Assembly: GCA_963764715.1 (NCBI GenBank)
Contig: CAVXTP010000021.1
Span: 64,001-128,000, forward strand
Length of the DNA: 64,000 bases
From: an uncultured Acidobacteriota bacterium
GTDB lineage: Bacteria; Acidobacteriota; Thermoanaerobaculia; UBA5066; Gp7-AA6
Reading direction: 5' to 3'
Shown one piece after another: positions 2,770 through 47,882 of the stretch. How positions within the stretch are numbered: the stretch's first letter is position 1; the number at the start of each line of letters is the position of its first letter. The notes under the pieces were generated by a model. The model saw only the letters and a list, made by a program, of their open reading frames with translations. It had not been told where the DNA came from and ran no database searches. The translations under genes were made by a program, and so were the position numbers.

Positions 2770-3662
2770 TCGAGGCGCGCGGGCTCGTCAAGGACTTCGG
2801 GAAGCACCGGGCGCTGAAGGGCATCGACCTCTCGATCCGGGCCGGCGAGCTCTTCGGGCTCATCGGGCCCGACGGCGCCGGCAAGACGACGTTCTTCCGC
2901 CTCGTGGCGGGCCTCCTCGCGCCGACCGCGGGCACCGTCGTGCGCGAGCGCGACACCGCGTTTGGTTTCGTCCCGCAGCGCTTCGGCCTCTACGAGGACC
3001 TCTCGATCGACGAGAACCTGCGGCTCCGGGCCCGGCTCTACGGCGTCGAGGACGCGGAGGCCGGGCGGCGCGCCGCGGACCTGCTCGCGCGCGTCGGCCT
3101 CGACCGGTTCGGGGCCCGGCTGGCCGGAGCGCTCTCCGGAGGGATGAAGCAGAAGCTCGCGCTCGTGGCGGCGCTCATGACGCGTCCGCCGCTCCTCCTG
3201 CTCGACGAGCCGACGACCGGCGTCGACCCGGTCTCGCGGCGGGAGTTCTGGGGCCTCCTGTCCGAGCTCCACCACGAGGGGCTGACCATCGTGATCTCGA
3301 CGCCCTACATGGACGAGGCGGAGTACGCCTCGCGGATCGGCTTCCTCGACGAAGGGAGGCTCTCCGCCCTCGGGACGCGCGAGGAGATCGTCGCCTCCTA
3401 TCCGCGGCGCCTCCTCGTCGTGCGGTCCTCGGACCGCGTCCACGTGCGCGAGCGACTCGCCGACTGCCCGGAGGTCGACGACGTGTCGCTCTTCGGGAGC
3501 TGGCTCCACGTCCGCGGAGCGGCGGGCGTCGGCGACGAGCTCGCGGACACGGTCCGCGGGCGCCTGGCGGGCCTCGTGCCGCCCGGCGACGTCGAGGCGC
3601 TCGGGCCGTCGCTCGAGGACGTCTTCGTGCTCAAGAGCGAGGAGGAAGGGGTGGCGGCGTGA
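2766..3662 (+). CDS. ABC transporter ATP-binding protein (YbhF-like)
   Basis: Walker A GPDGAGKTT, signature LSGGMKQK, LLLDEPT, STPYMDEAE. Confidence 0.92.
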   Translation: MIEARGLVKDFGKHRALKGIDLSIRAGELFGLIGPDGAGKTTFFRLVAGLLAPTAGTVVRERDTAFGFVPQRFGLYEDLSIDENLRLRARLYGVEDAEAGRRAADLLARVGLDRFGARLAGALSGGMKQKLALVAALMTRPPLLLLDEPTTGVDPVSRREFWGLLSELHHEGLTIVISTPYMDEAEYASRIGFLDEGRLSALGTREEIVASYPRRLLVVRSSDRVHVRERLADCPEVDDVSLFGSWLHVRGAAGVGDELADTVRGRLAGLVPPGDVEALGPSLEDVFVLKSEEEGVAA

Positions 3663-4611
3663 GCGCCGCGGTCCCGGAGACGTTCCTCGAGGCGCGCGCG
3701 CTGACGCGGCGCTTCGGCGACTTCACCGCCGTCGACGCCGTCAGCTTCGCCGTTCCGCGCGGACGCGTCTTCGGCTTCCTCGGGCCCAACGGCTCCGGCA
3801 AGTCGACGACGATCCGGATGCTCACGGGCCTGCTCGAGCCGACCTCGGGCTCGGCGGTCGGCTTCGGGGGTCTCGACGTGGCCCGGGACACCGAGGCATG
3901 GAAGCGGCGCCTCGGCTACATGAGCCAGAGGTTCTCGCTCTATCTCGACCTGACGGTCGAGGAGAACCTGCGCTTCTTCGGCACGATCTACGGCCTCGAG
4001 CCCGCGCGGCTGGAGGAGCGGATCCGGACGCCCTCGCCGCGCGCCTCGGGTTCGAGTCGCTCCGGCCGATCATGACGGAGACGCTCTCGACGGGCCAGCG
4101 CCAGCGCGTGGCGCTCGCCGCCGCGCTCCTCCACGAGCCCGAGCTGCTCTTTCTCGACGAGCCGACCGGCGGCGTCGACCCCCGCGGGCGGCGCCTCTTC
4201 TGGGACCTGATCTACGAGCTCGCCGCGGAACGGGGCATGACCGTGCTCGTGACGACGCACTACATGGACGAGGCCGAGCAGTGCGACCGCCTCGCCTTCA
4301 TCCTCGACGGGGCGCTGATCGCCGAGGGCACGCCGCACGAGCTCAAGTCCGACCTCGAGGGCCGGATCTTCGAGGTGGCGACGGCGGGCGACCCGTTCGC
4401 CGCCCTGGCCCGGATCCGCGACGACTCCGCGCTCGAGGACGCGTACCTCTTCGGCGTGCGCCTGCGCGTCGTCGTGCGCCGCGGGCGCGAGGCGGAGGCG
4501 CGCGCGCTCCTGGGTCGCCTGGGCGACCCGCGGGCGGCGGAGCCGTCGCTCGAGGACGTGTTCGTCTCGCTCGCCCGAGGCCGGGCGGCGAAGGCAAAGG
4601 TGGCGTCGTGA
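3659..4611 (+). pseudogene. Second ABC ATP-binding protein, split by a frameshift near 4020-4035 (pseudogene or sequencing error)
   Basis: Walker A GPNGSGKST is in ORF 3659-4075, while LSTGQRQR, LFLDEPT and TTHYMDEAE are in ORF 3898-4611 in another frame. Both ends are translationally coupled to neighbours. Confidence 0.8.
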
Positions 4612-5723
4612 AGCGGCTCCTGGCGCTGACCTGGAAGGAGTTCCTGCAGCTCAAGCGCGACCGGATCACGATGCGCATGATCCTGTTCGTGCCGATCATG
4701 CAGACGCTGATCTTCGGCTACGCGATCAACTACGACGTCAAGCACCTGAAGACGGTGGTCCTCGACGAGGCGAAGTCGGTCGAGAGCCGCGACCTCATCT
4801 CGAAGATGACGGCCACGGAGTACTTCCGCATCGTCGGCCACGTATCCTCCTTCGAGGAGCTCCGCCGGGAGCTCGATTCCGCGCACGCCTCGGTGGGGCT
4901 CGTGATCGACGCCGACTTCGGCAAAGACGCGCACCGCGGCAAGCCGGCGCAGGCGTTTCTCATCGTCGACGCCTCGGACACGACGACGTCGAGCCAGGCC
5001 ATGTCGATCGCGTCCGGCATCGCCAACGGGCTCTCGATCCGGGTCCTCGCGCGGCGCGCGGGCTGGAACTGGCCGCAGCTGCCGGTCGACCTGCGCGTCC
5101 GGCCCTGGTACAACCCGGACCTGAAGACCGCGACCTTCATCATTCCCGGCCTGATCGCGATCATCCTGACGTTCACGCTCATCCAGTTCACGGCCTCGGC
5201 GATCGTGCGCGAGCGCGAGCGCGGGACGCTCGAGCAGCTCCAGGTCACGCCCGCGACGCGGGTCGAGATCATCCTCGGCAAGATCCTGCCGTTCACGCTG
5301 ATCGGTTACGTCCAGCTCACGATGACCGTGCTGCTGATGCGGTTTCTCTTCGGCATCGTGATCCAGGGATCGGTCATCGAGCTTTACGTCGTGGGGCTCC
5401 TCTTCATCGCCGCGGTCCTGGGGCTCGGGATGCTGATCTCGACCGTCGCGAAGACGCAGATGCAGGCGATGCAGATGTCGACCTTCGTCCTGCTGCCGTT
5501 CGTCTTTCTCTCGGGGTACGTCTTCCCGATCGACGGCATGCCGGAGATCTTCCAGGCGCTCTCCCGGCTCATCCCGGCCCGTTACTTCATCGAGGTCCTG
5601 CGGGGAATCATCCTGCGCGGCGCGGGCATCGGGGAGCTGTGGCAGCCCGTCGCCTGGCTGACGCTCTACACCGTCCTCATCATCGCCCTCGCCGTCGCCC
5701 GCTTCAAGAAAACGACCGAATAG
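4608..5723 (+). CDS. ABC-2 type transporter permease (YbhS/YbhR-like)
   Basis: GTG overlaps upstream TGA; WKEFLQLKRD, WYNPDL, IVRERERGTLEQL, FLSGYVFPI; multiple TM helices. Confidence 0.92.
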   Translation: MKRLLALTWKEFLQLKRDRITMRMILFVPIMQTLIFGYAINYDVKHLKTVVLDEAKSVESRDLISKMTATEYFRIVGHVSSFEELRRELDSAHASVGLVIDADFGKDAHRGKPAQAFLIVDASDTTTSSQAMSIASGIANGLSIRVLARRAGWNWPQLPVDLRVRPWYNPDLKTATFIIPGLIAIILTFTLIQFTASAIVRERERGTLEQLQVTPATRVEIILGKILPFTLIGYVQLTMTVLLMRFLFGIVIQGSVIELYVVGLLFIAAVLGLGMLISTVAKTQMQAMQMSTFVLLPFVFLSGYVFPIDGMPEIFQALSRLIPARYFIEVLRGIILRGAGIGELWQPVAWLTLYTVLIIALAVARFKKTTE

Positions 5724-5725
5724 CC

Positions 5726-5876
5726 GGGGTCAGCCCTGCAACTCTGACTCTTGGGGTCAGCCCTGAAAGTCTGAAAGATCTGGATGGTCCAGGAAGTTGT
5801 CGAGCGCGAGGGGTTTACGCCGTTGGGCGGCTGAAGTGCTGCCGCGCCAAACTGTCATTCTTTCAGGGCTGACCCC
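5726..5876. repeat. GGGGTCAGCCCTG repeat cluster: two tandem 27-bp units plus one inverted copy
   Basis: GGGGTCAGCCCTG at 5726 and 5753; CAGGGCTGACCCC ends at 5876; lies between convergent genes. Confidence 0.8.
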
Positions 5877-5879
5877 AGG

Positions 5880-6248
5880 CTAGCGGACGGAGACGGCGAT
5901 GCCGTTCTCGAAGACCACGGTCTTGCCGACGCTGCGGTAGGTCCAGGTCTCGCGGGCGACGCCCGCCCCGGTCGTCTCGGTCGAGACGTCGTCGGGAGCG
6001 CCGAGGAGGGCGCGGACCTGGTCGGGCGTCATGTTCTCCGTCACGCCGCCGTTCGAGGGCTGATCGGCTTCGCGGCCGACGGCCTCGCCGGCGGACGTGC
6101 GCGCGTCGCTCGCCGCGGCCGCGGTCCGGGCGCGATCGATGGGGGAGCCTCGCGTTTCGCCGGGCGCCGAGCGGGTCAGCAGGCCCTGCGTCTTGACGAG
6201 GTACGCGACGATCCCGGCGGCGGCGAGCAGGAGCAGCAGCCTCTTCAT
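5880..6248 (-). CDS. Membrane-anchored small protein with SmpA/OmlA(BamE)-like C-terminal domain
   Basis: N-terminal hydrophobic anchor; MTPDQVRALLGAPD...ETWTY...VVFENG pattern; TATCAT-N6-ATG upstream. Confidence 0.65.
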   Translation of the reverse strand: MKRLLLLLAAAGIVAYLVKTQGLLTRSAPGETRGSPIDRARTAAAASDARTSAGEAVGREADQPSNGGVTENMTPDQVRALLGAPDDVSTETTGAGVARETWTYRSVGKTVVFENGIAVSVR

Positions 6249-6295
6249 GGCCCGATGATACGCGCCTCCCCGCCGACGTTAGACTTGGCCCTCGC

Positions 6296-6883
6296 ATGAG
6301 CTACTGCCGCGCGGCGAAGGGGCACCCGTACCACGGCCCGTACCACGACCGCGAGTATGGATTTCCCGTGCGTTCCGAGGCGGCCCTCCTCGAGCGGCTG
6401 GCCCTCGAGATCAATCAGGCCGGCCTCTCCTGGCTCACGATGCTCGTCAAGCGCGAGAATTTCCGCCGCGCGTTCGCCGGTTTCGACCCCGACGCCGTGG
6501 CCGCGTTCGGCGCCCGCGAGCGCCGGCGCCTGATGTCCGACGCCGGCATCGTCCGCAACCGTCTCAAGATCGCCGCGGTCATCGAGAACGCGCGGCGTCT
6601 CCGGGCGATCCGCGATACGCACGGCTCGTTCGCGCGATGGCTCGACGCGCACCACCCCCGCTCGGCGAAGGAATGGCAGAAGCTCTTCGGGGCGACCTTC
6701 GTCTTCACCGGCGGCGAGATCGTGAAGTCCTTTCTCCTCAGCACGGGCTACCTGCGCGGGGCGCACGTGCCGGCCTGCCCGGTTTACGCGAAGGTGGCGA
6801 GGAAGAGGCCGGCCTGGATGAAGGCCGCGGAGCGGCGACGTCCGCGGGCCCCGAGCGTCACTTCATCGGGCCGAACGGCTTGA
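6296..6883 (+). CDS. tag: DNA-3-methyladenine glycosylase I
   Basis: YHDREYG, LEINQAGLSW, KRENFRRAF, GIVRNRLKI, H-x3-C zinc motif. Confidence 0.92.
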   Translation: MSYCRAAKGHPYHGPYHDREYGFPVRSEAALLERLALEINQAGLSWLTMLVKRENFRRAFAGFDPDAVAAFGARERRRLMSDAGIVRNRLKIAAVIENARRLRAIRDTHGSFARWLDAHHPRSAKEWQKLFGATFVFTGGEIVKSFLLSTGYLRGAHVPACPVYAKVARKRPAWMKAAERRRPRAPSVTSSGRTA

Positions 6884-8234
6884 CCTGCTCCTCGACGAGC
6901 TTCCGGTCCCCGACCACCACGATCGTGGCCTTGTCGTCCTGGAGGTACTTCTTCGCCATCTCCTGAACCTCGGCCGGCGTCACGGCGTAGATCCGCGCGA
7001 CGTATCCGTTGAGGTAGTCGGCCGGAAGGCCGTTCAGGTCGACGAACTCGAGCTGCCCGGTGATCCCGGACCGCGAGGAGTTCTGCAGGACGAACACTCC
7101 CGCCCGGTAGTTCTGGAACGCGCGGAGCTCCTTTTCCGTCGGCGGCTCGGCCTGGAGCCGGTCGATCTCCGCGAAGATCTCCTTCAAGGCCGGCCCCGTC
7201 ACGTTGGTCGTGACGTCGGCGATCTCGATCCAGTACGCGTCGCGGTACCGGTTGGAGAGCTGGCCCTGCGGCGAATACGTGTAGCCCTTCTGCTCGCGGA
7301 TGTTGGACGTGATGCGGGAGGCGAAGGAGCCGCCGAGGAGCACGTTGGTCAGGTAGAGCTTGTCCCAGTCCGGGTTCGAGGGATCGATGACGGGCATGCC
7401 GACGTCGAGCGTCGACTGCGGCGCGCCCGGACGGTCGATGAGGTACACGGCGCGCTCGCTCCTCGGCTTCGGCCGGGAGGTGTTCGGCGCGGGCCCGCGC
7501 TTCCAGCCGGCGAACGCCTTGCGGATCGCGGCCTCCATCGCCGTCGCGTCGAAGCGGCCGACCACGTAGATGCGAGAGCGCGCGGCACCGAAGTTGCGGT
7601 CGTAGAAGTCGCGCACCTGCGCGACCGTGTAGCCCTGGAGCATCGCCTCCGTCGGGAAGATGCGGCCGTAGGGATGGTCCCCGTAGAGGACGGCGCGAAA
7701 CTTCTCCTGCGCCAGGGGCTGCGGCTGGCTCTTCTGGATCGAGAGCTGGCGGGCGCGGTCGGCCTTCAGGCGGCCGAGCTCGCTTTCCGGAAACTTCGGG
7801 TGCTGAACCACGTCGGCAACGAGGGCCACCATCTCGGGCCCGAACTCCGAGAGGACGTCTCCGCCGATGTCGGTCCGGTTCGGTCCGACCGCAATCTCGA
7901 GGGCCCCGCCCATGCGGGCGGCGTCCTCGGCGATTTTCGACGCGCTGCGGGTCGCCGTGCCCTCGGAGAGCATGTCGCCCGCCAGGTCGGCCAGCCAGAC
8001 CTCGTTGGCCTTCTCGTCGACGTTGCCGGTCAGGACCGCGAGGTTCACGGAGACCTTCGGGACCGTTCCGTACGGCACCAGCGTGACTCCGAGCCCGTTG
8101 TCGAGGGTCAGCGTCGTCGGCTTCGGCACCGAGAAGCCCTTCGGCGTCCCGGGCGCGGGCGGCGCCTGCTTGTCGGCGAGGAGCGCCGGGGCCGCGGCGA
8201 GTCCGGCGAGGAAGGCGGCGGTGAGCTTGTTCAT
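6858..8234 (-). CDS. M16 family peptidase, non-catalytic (beta-like) subunit
   Basis: LDNGL, LGGSFASR, IREQKGYTY; lacks HXXEH. Confidence 0.88.
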   Translation of the reverse strand: MNKLTAAFLAGLAAAPALLADKQAPPAPGTPKGFSVPKPTTLTLDNGLGVTLVPYGTVPKVSVNLAVLTGNVDEKANEVWLADLAGDMLSEGTATRSASKIAEDAARMGGALEIAVGPNRTDIGGDVLSEFGPEMVALVADVVQHPKFPESELGRLKADRARQLSIQKSQPQPLAQEKFRAVLYGDHPYGRIFPTEAMLQGYTVAQVRDFYDRNFGAARSRIYVVGRFDATAMEAAIRKAFAGWKRGPAPNTSRPKPRSERAVYLIDRPGAPQSTLDVGMPVIDPSNPDWDKLYLTNVLLGGSFASRITSNIREQKGYTYSPQGQLSNRYRDAYWIEIADVTTNVTGPALKEIFAEIDRLQAEPPTEKELRAFQNYRAGVFVLQNSSRSGITGQLEFVDLNGLPADYLNGYVARIYAVTPAEVQEMAKKYLQDDKATIVVVGDRKLVEEQVKPFGPMK

Positions 8235-44936: not shown

Positions 44937-45323
44937 ATGAGCGGGCGTCAATTTCGCAAGGTCCTCCTCTTCGTCGCGGCGGCCGGCGTGGCCTACTGGA
45001 TCTACAAGGACCGCCCGACCATGTCCGGATTCATCGACTCGATCACGGACCCTCTGATGAGCTCCCACGCCGCGGTGAAGAGCTCGGAACGCAACCGGGT
45101 CGTTGGCGAAGCATCCCAGGCCATTACCGAGCAGAGCGGCCTGCCCGTCGGAAGCCTGCGCGAAGGAATGAAGACCCGCGAGGTCCTGGACCTGCTCGGC
45201 GAGCCGGATTCGAAGGAGGACGAGACCGTCGACGGCGCCGCGCAGGTCCGCTGGACCTACGCGCGGGAGCACCGCGTCCTCTACTTTCAGCGCGACCGGC
45301 TGGTCTCGATCGTCGTCCGGTAG
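44937..45323 (+). CDS. Membrane-anchored small protein with SmpA/OmlA-like domain
   Basis: N-terminal TM; GMKTREVLDLLGEPD...WTY...LYFQ; TAGAAT-N7-ATG upstream. Confidence 0.65.
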   Translation: MSGRQFRKVLLFVAAAGVAYWIYKDRPTMSGFIDSITDPLMSSHAAVKSSERNRVVGEASQAITEQSGLPVGSLREGMKTREVLDLLGEPDSKEDETVDGAAQVRWTYAREHRVLYFQRDRLVSIVVR

Positions 45324-46291
45324 GCGGCCGCGGCCGCGCCGAGCAGGCCCAGCCGCGGCTCGAGCACCACGCGCACGGGAATCGCCGACAGCAGGCCGTC
45401 CATCGGCGGCTTGTTGCGGAACGCCTCGAGGAACGGCCGGCGCCGGAGCGCGGACAGGATCTTGGGGGCGATCCCGCCGGCGAGATAGATGCCGCCGGTC
45501 GCGCGGTACTGGAGCGCGCAGTTGCCGGCCTCGGACCCGTAGATCGAGACGAAGAGATCGAGGGCCTGGCGGCAGAGGGCGTCCTTGCGCGCGAGGCCGA
45601 ACCGGCTGATCACCGCGGCGCGGTCGTCGCTGCGCTCGAATTCGGCGGCCACGGCGGGGCTTTCGCGGGCGGCGCGCTCGGACTTGAGGAACTCGTAGAG
45701 ATAGACGAGGCCGCGTCCCGACAGGACCTTTTCGCGCGTGGCGCGGCCCGCCTGTCGGCGCAGGAAGACGACGAGACGGTCCTCGATGGGATTGCGCGCG
45801 GCGAAGTCGGCGTGACCGCTCTCCGACGGAACGACTTCGTACCGGTCTCCCGTCGACACGAGGCAGGCCTGACCGAGGCCGGTGCCGGCGCCGAGGATCC
45901 CGATCGGTCCGCGCGGCTCCGCGCGCCCGCGCGCGAGGGTCGCGAGCTGCGCGGCCTTGAGCTCCGGCAGGCCCAGAGCGTTCGACACGAAGTCGTTCAG
46001 GACCCGCACCCGCGGGATGCCGGTCGCGCGCGCGATCCGGGACTCCTCGATCCGCCACGTCAGGTTGGTGACCTTGGCGGCCCCGTCCCGGACCGGCCCG
46101 GCGACGCCGAATCCCGCCGCCTCCGGCTTCGAGCTCTCTCCGGCGAGGAAGATCTCGATGACCTGCTCCAGGCCCGGATACGCCGCGCTCGGATATCGCT
46201 CGCTCCGCACGAGCGTCCGGCCGCGCGGCCCCATCTCGAAGATCGCGAGGGCGGTCTTGGTGCCGCCGATGTCGCCCGCGAGGATGCGCAT
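45287..46291 (-). CDS. glk: Glucokinase
   Basis: LAGDIGGTKT, GVAGPV, VLNDF, GAGTGLG, SESGH, YLAGGIAPK. Confidence 0.94.
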   Translation of the reverse strand: MRILAGDIGGTKTALAIFEMGPRGRTLVRSERYPSAAYPGLEQVIEIFLAGESSKPEAAGFGVAGPVRDGAAKVTNLTWRIEESRIARATGIPRVRVLNDFVSNALGLPELKAAQLATLARGRAEPRGPIGILGAGTGLGQACLVSTGDRYEVVPSESGHADFAARNPIEDRLVVFLRRQAGRATREKVLSGRGLVYLYEFLKSERAARESPAVAAEFERSDDRAAVISRFGLARKDALCRQALDLFVSIYGSEAGNCALQYRATGGIYLAGGIAPKILSALRRRPFLEAFRNKPPMDGLLSAIPVRVVLEPRLGLLGAAAAAYRTTIETSRSR

Positions 46292-46314
46292 GCGCTGGGG
46301 ACGGTAGCAGAACC

Positions 46315-46425
46315 GGTAAGCAGTAAGCCGTAAGCCGTAAGCAGTGAGGCTTATCCGGCGGAAATGCCCGTTGAGCGCCAGACCCACGGCTTACTGCTTA
46401 CTGCCTACTGCCTACTGCCTACTGG
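46315..46425. repeat. Inverted heptamer tandem arrays
   Basis: (N-GTAAGC)x4 at 46315-46342 and (GCYTACT)x5 at 46389-46423, separated by about 45 bp. Confidence 0.85.
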
Positions 46426-46454
46426 TTTAGAGTTCCCGCCGGGACCGCGCGGGC

Positions 46455-46525
46455 AAAAAAAAGCCCCGGGTCGGGGTGGGGCCGCCCGGGGGGCGAAAGG
46501 AGGAGGTTGAGGTTCCTTTGCTCGC
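46455..46525 (-). ncRNA. Candidate sigma54-dependent small RNA (about 70 nt) with anti-SD loop and intrinsic terminator
   Basis: TGGCCG-CGCGC-TTGCT promoter, two hairpins, ACCUCCUCCUUU segment and U8 tail; no start codon in the predicted transcript. Confidence 0.65.
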
Positions 46526-46535
46526 GTTGAGAGAT

Positions 46536-46551
46536 AGCAAGCGCGCGGCCA
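46536..46551 (-). promoter_or_regulatory. sigma54 -24/-12 promoter of the candidate sRNA
   Basis: TGGCCGCGCGCTTGCT; IHF-like AAATAAGGGTTTA 16 bp upstream. Confidence 0.65.
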
Positions 46552-46658
46552 GCTTTCCGTCGGAGGCTAAACCCTTATTTCAGAGAGTGTTGGAGCTTCG
46601 CCAGCTCCGGCCCGTGACGAGAATTGTCAGGCCCCGAAGGCCTCCGGCTGCCTCAATT

Positions 46659-47882
46659 TTGCGCCTCTCCCTGGTTCTGGCGCTCGCGGTCTCGGCCTCG
46701 GGCTGCATGTACCTCTTCTCGGAGAAGCGGACCGTCTACCGGTACGAGCCCGAATATGGCGTCGACAGCCCGGAGTTCCGGAGGTCCCTCGACGCTCTCG
46801 GCAACGAGATGACCCCGGGCAACCGGGCCGAGCTCCTCCAGAACGCGGACGGCATCTTTCCGCGCATGCTCGAGACGATCGCTTCCGCGAAGCTTTCGAT
46901 CAACTTCGAGATCTACATCTTCAAGGACGACCGCGTGGGCCGGCGCTTCGGGAAGGCGCTCGCCGAGCGCGCCCGGGCCGGGGTCGAGGTGCGGCTGCTC
47001 GTCGACGGGTGGGGGTCCTCCCTCGGACCGCTCGGGGACGAGCTCGAGAAAGCCGGGGCGATCGTCCGCGTGTACAAGCCGCTCCGCATCTACTCGATCG
47101 ACCACGTCGGCAACCGGACCCACCGGCGCATCCTCACGATCGACGGCCGCATCGGGTTCTGCGGCGGCGTCGGCCTCGACGAACGCTGGGAGGCCTGGCG
47201 CGACACGATGATCGAGGTGGACGGCCCGGTCACGGCGCAGCTCCAGCGCGTCTTCGCGCAGGACTGGATGTTCACGACGGGCGAGGTCCTGAACGGCGAC
47301 CGCCAATTCCCGCACATCGATTCCGCGGGCGACCAGCTCGCGCAGGTGATCGCCTCCGCGCGCGCCGACGCGCTCTCCATGTCGAAGCTCCTTCTCTACA
47401 TGGCGATCCAGGCCTCGCGAAGCAGCCTCTGGATCGAGAACGCCTACTTCGTGCCGGACGGGCAGATCCGCGAGGGCCTCGTCGAGGCGGCGCGCCGCGG
47501 AGTCGACGTCCGGGTCGTCGTGCCGGGCGAACACATGGACGCCCCGAATGTCCGGGCGGCGGCCCGCTATCACTACGGCGAGCTCCTCGACGCGGGCGTG
47601 AAGATCTACGAATACCGTCCGACGATGCTCCACAACAAGGTCATGGTCGTCGACGGAATCTGGTCGACGGTCGGATCGATCAACTTCGTCAACCGGTCGA
47701 TGAAGAAGAATGCCGAGGTGAACTTCGCCATCTACGATCGGGCGTTCGCGCAGAAGGTCGAGGCGATGGTCCTCGACGACCTCGTGCGCTGCGACATCCT
47801 GACCAAGAAGGAATGGAAGAATCGAAGCGTCTGGGCCCGGATCGGCGAGACGTTCTTCTGGCTCTTCTCGGAGAACTACTGA
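46659..47882 (+). CDS. Cardiolipin synthase-like phospholipase D (possible lipoprotein)
   Basis: THRRILTIDG and LHNKVMVVDG HKD-type motifs; WRDT, NAYFVP, GSINF. Start TTG inferred from the signal/lipobox ASGC. Confidence 0.88.
   Translation: MRLSLVLALAVSASGCMYLFSEKRTVYRYEPEYGVDSPEFRRSLDALGNEMTPGNRAELLQNADGIFPRMLETIASAKLSINFEIYIFKDDRVGRRFGKALAERARAGVEVRLLVDGWGSSLGPLGDELEKAGAIVRVYKPLRIYSIDHVGNRTHRRILTIDGRIGFCGGVGLDERWEAWRDTMIEVDGPVTAQLQRVFAQDWMFTTGEVLNGDRQFPHIDSAGDQLAQVIASARADALSMSKLLLYMAIQASRSSLWIENAYFVPDGQIREGLVEAARRGVDVRVVVPGEHMDAPNVRAAARYHYGELLDAGVKIYEYRPTMLHNKVMVVDGIWSTVGSINFVNRSMKKNAEVNFAIYDRAFAQKVEAMVLDDLVRCDILTKKEWKNRSVWARIGETFFWLFSENY

Follow-up and report, generated by a model that had tools for sequence, protein, structure and literature searches.

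The intergenic region between glk and cls in an uncultured Acidobacteriota bacterium (GenBank GCA_963764715.1; Bacteria; Acidobacteriota; Thermoanaerobaculia; UBA5066; Gp7-AA6) raises the question of whether it holds a small regulatory RNA gene of its own and, if it does, what that RNA acts on. The window analysed is a stretch of 64,000 nucleotides of contig CAVXTP010000021.1 (positions 64,001 to 128,000 of the forward strand), part of a 4.36-Mb assembly with 70% GC, and positions are counted within this window. On its minus strand, positions 46629-46455 hold in succession a palindrome, an AT-rich tract, a sigma-54-type promoter, a 71-nt RNA free of open reading frames and an intrinsic terminator. 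An initial annotation, made from the letters of the window, had read this arrangement as a sigma-54-dependent RNA with an anti-Shine-Dalgarno motif that represses translation in trans. We find that the element is very probably a real non-coding RNA gene driven by sigma-54. For the whole statement, namely an independently transcribed sigma-54 gene for a trans-acting RNA of ~71 nt that pairs with Shine-Dalgarno (SD) regions, the balance tips modestly in favour, and pairing with ribosome-binding sites as the main action is a tentative assignment to which we give slightly less than an even chance.

Conservation and distribution of the RNA

Judged from sequence comparison, it is conservation, not the fold alone, that decisively places the element far beyond chance. 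When a 409-nt intergenic query was compared with 41 relatives, it matched 23 of the 24 same-genus genomes, the lone non-matching genome being 73% complete. Except in the closest relatives, the match is limited to query positions ~150-253 (window 46551-46448), with 88-96% identity. An alignment of 20 loci delimits the element further: conservation starts at TGGCC, spans TTGC, is lost between -12 and +1, picks up again at N-CGAG, remains near-invariant to the U-tract and then ends, with a mean column identity of 92% over the RNA in 20 species of the window's genus. As far as an alignment can tell, this is the footprint of a promoter plus its transcript, not that of a protein-coding or plus-strand element.

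The RNA extends well beyond the genus. A covariance model searched against 151 genomes of the order finds it in 79 of the 80 genomes of the window's family (f1), in 11 genera and mostly as one copy each (77 of 78 if the two family genomes flagged as unpublished are left out); the source genome likewise has a single copy. The 3' 50 nt are near-totally invariant across the 11 genera, terminator stem and loop CCCCACC included, whereas for the Cls protein encoded next to it identity drops to ~64% in other genera. In the relatives, promoter and C/U-rich motif are conserved jointly, which the initial annotation had named as the thing to look for. In the sister families the covariance model gave no convincing RNA, with one match each at E ~0.006 (f2, 1/63 genomes; f3, 1/7), and no homologue stands upstream of their cls genes, where the best covariance score with filters off is 11.5 bits. 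Scanning one genome of each prokaryotic species for the exact pattern returned 93 stretches, and the 80 titles shown are all Acidobacteriota or Thermoanaerobaculia metagenome-assembled genomes (MAGs).

A few matches depart from this pattern. One relative (locus L069, 2961-3000, minus strand) has a second, diverged terminator-like copy just 3' of the RNA (25 bits). In a 75%-complete MAG (G154; L062, L063) the RNA occurs in two versions, of which one resembles that of the window's genus and the second that of another genus; this MAG may be a mixed bin. A match in genome G174 resembles low-quality homopolymer sequence and was dropped.

Anatomy of the locus

The unit and its flanks comprise the following features:

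46615-46629, minus strand: palindromic upstream site TGACAATTCTCGTCA, centred at about -97, a candidate enhancer-binding-protein site (upstream activator site)
46566-46590, minus strand: AT-rich, IHF-like tract CTCTGAAATAAGGGTTTAGCC between the upstream site and the promoter
46536-46551, minus strand: sigma-54-type promoter TGGCCG-CGCGC-TTGCT (GG at -24, GC at -12)
46526-46535, minus strand: variable spacer (-11 to -1), unconserved between two conserved flanks
46455-46525, minus strand: predicted small RNA of ~71 nt, GCGAGCAAAGGAACCUCAACCUCCUCCUUUCGCCCCCCGGGCGGCCCCACCCCGACCCGGGGCUUUUUUUU, with no internal start codon
46493-46506, minus strand: invariant C/U-rich core CCUCCUCCUUUCGC (RNA positions 20-33), of which CCUCCUUUC is common to the 16S 3' tail
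46455-46491, minus strand: intrinsic terminator with a 10-bp GC stem, a one-base bulge, the loop CCCCACC and U8
45287-46291, minus strand: glk (glucokinase; PF02685, E 2.7e-99), a separate unit in the downstream flank, with its ATG at 46291
46659-47882, plus strand: cls-like gene for a PLD-family lipoprotein (PF13091, E 4.8e-44), the divergent flank

The promoter, its position, the AT tract and an RNA without AUG, GUG or UUG are all present as the initial annotation had described them. The start of cls is probably TTG 46659 (or GTG 46614) rather than GTG 46476, because homology to relatives begins at the lipobox cysteine. Of these, GTG 46614 overlaps the palindrome, which is conserved at the level of nucleotides and not in a protein-like way.

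Between the RNA terminator and glk, a long hairpin made of heptamer arrays is inserted in the window (46312-46426), with (CAGTAGG/CAGTAAG)n opposite (CTTACGG/CTTACTG)n. The source genome has 28 arrays of at least three such heptamers, four of them of the hairpin type, and heptamer arrays are found in relatives too; a 33-nt core of the repeat reaches a summed depth of up to 164 in metatranscriptome contigs. A further motif, GACTCTAAGCC (window 46426-46436; loci L010-L028), is conserved 16-61 nt 3' of the terminator in the window's genus only. The sole Rfam family above its gathering score in the window is a SAM riboswitch (RF00162, 54486-54612, minus strand, 58.9 bits).

Promoter, upstream site and sigma-54 machinery

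Sigma-54 promoters follow the consensus TGGCAC-N5-TTGCW, with GG at -24 and GC at -12 at a fixed spacing. TGGCCG-CGCGC-TTGCT (46551-46536, minus strand) has the same GG/GC spacing, and TGGC-N7-TTGC is found in 98/98 distinct family sequences (derived from 160 matches), both tetramers being 100% conserved. In most of these sequences N-CGAG starts 10-13 nt past TTGCW, which equals the start distance expected for sigma-54, and the +1 is placed at ~46525 because conservation resumes at this point. Upstream, T[GA]ACA-N5-YGTCA occurs in 96 of the 98 sequences and begins 76-80 nt (mode 78) before TGGC, and the other two contain the palindrome with one-letter variants. Its centre at about -97 falls within the ~80-150 nt expected for upstream activator sites, and it is a candidate for the site of an enhancer-binding protein; the strict motif has only two copies in the 4.36-Mb genome. 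The intervening tract (46566-46590) is the most A/T-rich part of an otherwise 70% GC region, the T 18 nt upstream of TGGC is A or T in 100% of the sequences, and a CAA..CTTA pattern is partly conserved. We regard this tract as IHF-like but not diagnostic.

The genome has the corresponding proteins. It carries one rpoN gene (Sigma54_DBD, 225.5 bits) and 19 Sigma54_activat matches, of which 12 score at least 192 bits and amount to about a dozen full bacterial enhancer-binding proteins, as well as an Hfq gene (67 bits) and three HU/IHF-family genes. The comparative evidence, together with rpoN, the ~12 enhancer-binding proteins and Hfq, supports the proposal of a sigma-54-type, independent and non-coding promoter-to-terminator unit. 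The promoter pattern is found at 31 sites in the genome, many of them preceding SD-led genes such as those for pilin-like proteins, and a loose pattern of sigma-54 promoter plus terminator yields three units in the source genome, of which only this RNA is convincing. At one site (G000:C3, ~75976-77411, minus strand), three successive sigma-54-type promoters each stand before a pilin-like gene starting MKKRESGFTLIEL.

The second strict palindrome, TGACAACCGCCGTCA (G000:C7, locus L221 ~2859-6900, minus strand), lies 75 nt upstream of another sigma-54 promoter, TGGCCCGGTCCTTGCG. This promoter precedes two genes for secreted, SLH-domain, reprolysin-like (M12B) metallopeptidases; next in line are an OmpR-type response regulator and a histidine kinase. 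Two congeners also have this promoter, with a palindrome that carries one mismatch and stands 75-76 nt away. The recurrence of the site suggests that the RNA and the metalloprotease operon may share an activator and form a small regulon. In the metalloprotease itself (L221:4848-6743, minus strand), a C-terminal SLH-containing module of ~185 aa (residues ~447-630) is hugely expanded: used as a query against the congener G006, the protein gives 67 matches, mostly to the SLH module alone.

RNA structure and terminator

The predicted folding energy of the 71-nt RNA is -27.7 kcal/mol (z = -2.42), which 3 of 200 shuffles equal; the fold alone is only mildly unusual, and fold statistics are weak. A terminator scan identified one minus-strand terminator, at 46476-46464 plus a T-run. 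Over 45 sequences, 98.2% of its cells are paired and two pairs show compensatory change, and the loop CCCCACC is invariant and C-rich, in agreement with the initial reading.

The 5' part is more variable between lineages, and within the genus variation is too small to test any fold. A GAGG-loop-CCUC hairpin is present in 48 of the 80 distinct 5' segments, nine of which lengthen the stem by A-U, U-A, or U-A plus C-G pairs. Another 30 segments, all of the window type, have GAGC..CUC and can instead pair AAAGGA with UCCUUU, and two have neither hairpin. The 5' stem AAAGGA/UCCUUU, which had been proposed to expose ACCUCAACCUCC, is therefore a property of the window's genus and is replaced elsewhere by the GAGG..CCUC hairpin. 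In the minimum free energy (MFE) fold of the window RNA, GCGAG pairs instead with UUCGC and AGGA with UCCU. The MFE folds of eight of the 11 representatives from other genera consist of a small 5' hairpin, unpaired ACCUCCUCCUUUCGC and the terminator, with the core CCUCCUCCUUUCGC in a single-stranded linker and not in a hairpin loop. Hfq-dependent pairing RNAs are marked by a 3' hairpin with a U-tail, an unpaired seed and an A- or U-rich site for Hfq. The U8 tail and unpaired tract are present here, and an A-rich loop, AAACAAAA, is found only outside the window's genus.

Pyrimidine tract, 16S tail and proposed mechanism

In the family comparison, the C/U-rich motif is the most conserved part of the RNA. 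CUCCUCCUUUCGC is found in all 80 distinct 5' segments, for which the retrieval pattern required it, and also in every covariance-model match read. The 16S 3' end of the source genome is GGATCACCTCCTTT followed by CT (as RNA, ...GGAUCACCUCCUUU followed by CU), and the RNA core CCUCCUCCUUUCGC contains CCUCCUUUC, 9 nt identical to this tail. Because the tract nearly copies the 16S rRNA 3' tail, the RNA would most likely pair with SD regions. A crude start-site profile of the source genome has a GGAG/GAGG peak at -13 to -8 and also a leaderless-like TANNNT peak, with the hexamer starting 12-15 nt before the start codon. This is consistent with SD-led and leaderless initiation both existing in the source genome, and the many leaderless genes assumed in the initial annotation are in keeping with this profile and with glk itself.

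The proposed mechanism starts with an enhancer-binding protein, which would bind the palindrome at about -97 and activate sigma-54 RNA polymerase at TGGCCG-N5-TTGCT, probably assisted by a DNA-bending protein at the AT tract. Transcription would begin near 46525 and stop at the GC hairpin and U8 (46491-46455), giving an RNA predicted to consist of a lineage-variable short 5' hairpin, the invariant tract CCUCCUCCUUUCGC and a terminator whose loop is C-rich. Through this pyrimidine tract the RNA would pair with purine-rich SD regions (GAAAGGAGGAGG-like) in particular mRNAs, Hfq would sit on the U-tail, and the pairing would block 30S binding. A perfect complement of at least 10 nt just upstream of the start codon is found in 18 genes of the source genome, ~12 of which have signal-peptide-like N-termini by eye. 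They include four SLH-domain proteins (one with RHS repeats), a sulfatase, an M1 peptidase and a BON protein; no single theme unites the 18 genes, which mostly encode secreted or surface proteins.

Several observations weigh against this mechanism. Exact-complement, energy-based and 12-mer searches found no conserved target. A 12-nt perfect complement has 265 matches in 81 family genomes, ~80 of which are the RNA gene itself, compared with 151 for a reversed 12-mer control, an enrichment of only ~1.2-fold (247 vs. 141 when the four unpublished genomes among the 81 are left out). The metalloprotease mRNA was rejected as a conserved target, its SD complementarity GGAGGAGG not being shared by congeners. 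An energy-based target ranking was likewise discarded: at 70% GC, 1775 of 4884 candidate starts passed -17 kcal/mol, and what drove the order was mainly the pairing of G-rich runs with the C-rich arm of the hairpin. The invariance of the 3' 50 nt, stem included, exceeds what mRNA pairing usually needs. As for the structure, the 5' hairpin is almost without covariation (39 of the 48 GAGG..CCUC stems have no extension pair), the window's genus has lost one pair of this stem, and in the window RNA itself the MFE fold leaves the pyrimidine tract only partly exposed. The expression data belong here as well. Of the 23 runs returned by a search of sequencing data, no run contained as many as half of the words sampled, and four metatranscriptome runs from four studies each gave one contig over ~46448-46526, with 0 differences and a depth of 2-4. 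These contigs run into unlike flanks, including promoter-side sequence of relatives; they may represent DNA carry-over or read-through and speak neither for nor against a discrete transcript.

A longer related RNA in other Thermoanaerobaculia families

Outside the window's family, the first covariance model gave only weak matches in the class. A second model, built on the 3' module, picked up 10 additional genomes in six other families of the class sample; it had no match in five well-sampled families (f2, f3, f5, f11, f14) and none in ~139 genomes of other classes of the phylum. Nine of the 10 matches, from five families (loci L261-L270), represent one longer RNA of ~110-130 nt; the tenth (G165) is a poorer fit and does not enter the alignment. 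The longer RNA has a conserved extra 5' hairpin and the tract UCCCUCUCCUCCCCCC. Its terminator combines outer CCCCG/CGGGG pairs and a freely covarying inner stem with a constant loop (U)CCCUCC and a U-tract. The predicted fold pairs a 5' GGGAG segment with the beginning of the tract, as GAGG does with CCUC in the window's family, and compensatory changes are seen at five of 17 predicted pairs. Sigma-54-like promoters precede two of the nine (G263, G191), no clear promoter is seen for the other seven, and a GGGAATC box lies upstream of most of these longer RNAs. Their locus is a different one, often divergent from an epimerase/dehydratase-like gene, which is recognised from the gene start on the reverse strand, and Rfam has no match for the longer RNA.

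The two RNAs share a G-rich 5' arm, a C/U tract and a covarying terminator with a C-rich loop, and they differ in length, in the extra 5' hairpin, in locus and in the tract, which in the longer RNA does not reproduce the 16S tail exactly. The longer RNA could be a moved orthologue or a parallel invention. Its features suggest a class-wide group of such RNAs.

Alternative explanations

The same conservation could reflect a decoy function. A real sigma-54-driven RNA might act as a decoy or mimic that titrates a protein or RNA recognising the anti-SD end of 16S rRNA, such as a nuclease, a modification or assembly factor, or a toxin, or else another protein with affinity for C/U-rich RNA. The invariant 3' 50 nt, with terminator stem and CCCCACC, set against a far less conserved Cls, would suit such a role, as would the 9 nt identical to the 16S tail and the finding that extended complements are not enriched in family genomes. 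No candidate partner has been identified, however, invariant seeds are possible in multi-target pairing RNAs as well, and the related RNA of other families, with UCCCUCUCCUCCCCCC, is no longer a letter-for-letter copy of the 16S tail, and we consider the decoy unlikely. More sweeping, and clearly less probable than the decoy, is a regulated 16S-tail mimic, produced in sufficient amounts once an enhancer-binding protein perceives its signal, that competes for SD sequences generally or soaks up a 16S-tail factor. If this were true, translation would shift from SD-led mRNAs, which often encode secreted or surface proteins, to leaderless ones, and the RNA would be a global switch of the translation-initiation mode with a design conserved across Thermoanaerobaculia.

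Two further explanations tie the element to its neighbours. A cis-acting leader, in which the sigma-54 promoter drives glk and the hairpin with its U-tract is a conditional attenuator, draws on the position of glk: of 30 loci, taken from all genera examined, 28 have glk downstream in the same orientation, a linkage as old as the RNA. The distance from the terminator to the glk start (identified by MR[IV]LAGD[IV]GGT in 28 of 30 loci), however, is unconserved at 52-343 nt, and in the window the repeat hairpin has been inserted into this interval. In the same-genus loci with the upstream sequence printed, an extended -10-like box, TGnTAGCTT, lies 6-7 nt before the glk start codon, and because of this box glk would appear to have a leaderless promoter of its own. 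The terminator is strong, no conserved alternative anti-terminator pairing is seen, and the related RNA of other families stands at a different locus without glk; an attenuator for glk thus has a slim chance. The plus strand offers another reading, with the conserved block as the cls 5' untranslated region, its ribosome-binding site (AAAGGAGGAGG) or an N-terminal coding part, given that in the window GTG 46476 opens a frame continuous with cls and that 67 of 70 fetched loci (some places counted twice) have cls as divergent neighbour. Yet in eight of 18 loci (L015, L065, L066, L071, L072, L074, L077, L078) the stop-to-stop cls frame falls short of the RNA, Cls homology begins only at the lipobox cysteine, ~230 nt downstream, and several genera have a gene between the RNA and cls (L064, L067, L068, L059, L075). 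Moreover, the T-run, the sigma-54 elements and the fixed palindrome distance fit the minus strand only, and no conserved start codon follows AAAGGAGGAGG. The initial annotation had noted that a true cls start upstream of 46536 would speak against an RNA; with the frame closed in 8 of 18 relatives, this point has mostly come out in favour of the RNA, and the plus-strand reading of the sequence appears close to refuted. These comparisons leave the sigma-54-driven RNA that pairs with SD regions as the preferred explanation.

Comparison with known systems

The search of the element against Rfam 15 yielded nothing that reaches its gathering threshold, the best scores being those of anti-hemB (18.5/49.5 bits), mmgR (16.5/41) and sX13 (14.9/50), in line with the initial statement that it belongs to no named family. 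In the full-text literature, with subscription journals outside its coverage, we found no description of such an RNA nor of any Thermoanaerobaculia small RNA. The closest parallels in gene architecture are Qrr1-5 (LuxO), GlmY/GlmZ (GlrR, IHF), CrcZ (CbrB, IHF) and NrsZ (NtrC), which we take to be sigma-54/enhancer-dependent small RNAs. They share with the present element the activator site, bending tract, -24/-12 promoter, short RNA without open reading frame and intrinsic terminator, whereas the element described here is from Acidobacteriota, has no adjacent activator gene and carries a pyrimidine seed resembling the 16S tail. CrcZ and GlmY act as protein decoys.

With regard to the motif, sX13 of Xanthomonas is reportedly a repressor RNA with C-rich loops. 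The terminator loop CCCCACC is similarly C-rich and invariant, but there is no homology to sX13 or to RNAIII of Staphylococcus aureus, and size and promoter differ. The C-rich unpaired motifs of RNAIII (UCCC loops) and sX13 are proposed to pair with G-rich ribosome-binding sites (PMC4615179). The same paper describes the cuckoo/alpha-r14 RNAs of Alphaproteobacteria (RSs0680a-d, SmelC397/NfeR1) as 2-4 adjacent hairpins with CCUCCUCCC in each loop; the members studied so far depend on RpoH, and action at ribosome-binding sites has been proposed or shown for these RNAs (PMC4615179). Going by that description, their anti-SD-like motif is nearly identical to the one found here (CCUCCUCCC there, CCUCCUCCUUU here), while the present RNA has one motif, CCUCCUCCUUU, mostly in a linker, and a sigma-54 promoter, and comes from Acidobacteriota. 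With a single motif, a linker position in most genera and no Rfam match, it falls outside the cuckoo/alpha-r14 family as defined in that paper.

Implications

On comparative grounds, we consider the RNA to be a solid case of an uncatalogued small RNA family, which is very probably sigma-54-dependent and putatively of the anti-SD type. Its hosts belong to Thermoanaerobaculia, a widespread and mostly uncultured class of soil and sediment Acidobacteriota. The candidate activator site, together with the second promoter that has the same site, makes both the regulon and the signal to which it responds testable. As genomes of this kind mix SD-led and leaderless genes, the likeness of the RNA to the 16S tail would make it a good case for studying how translation initiation is partitioned between the two. 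The class-wide group of RNAs could enter RNA catalogues and improve the annotation of hundreds of MAGs.

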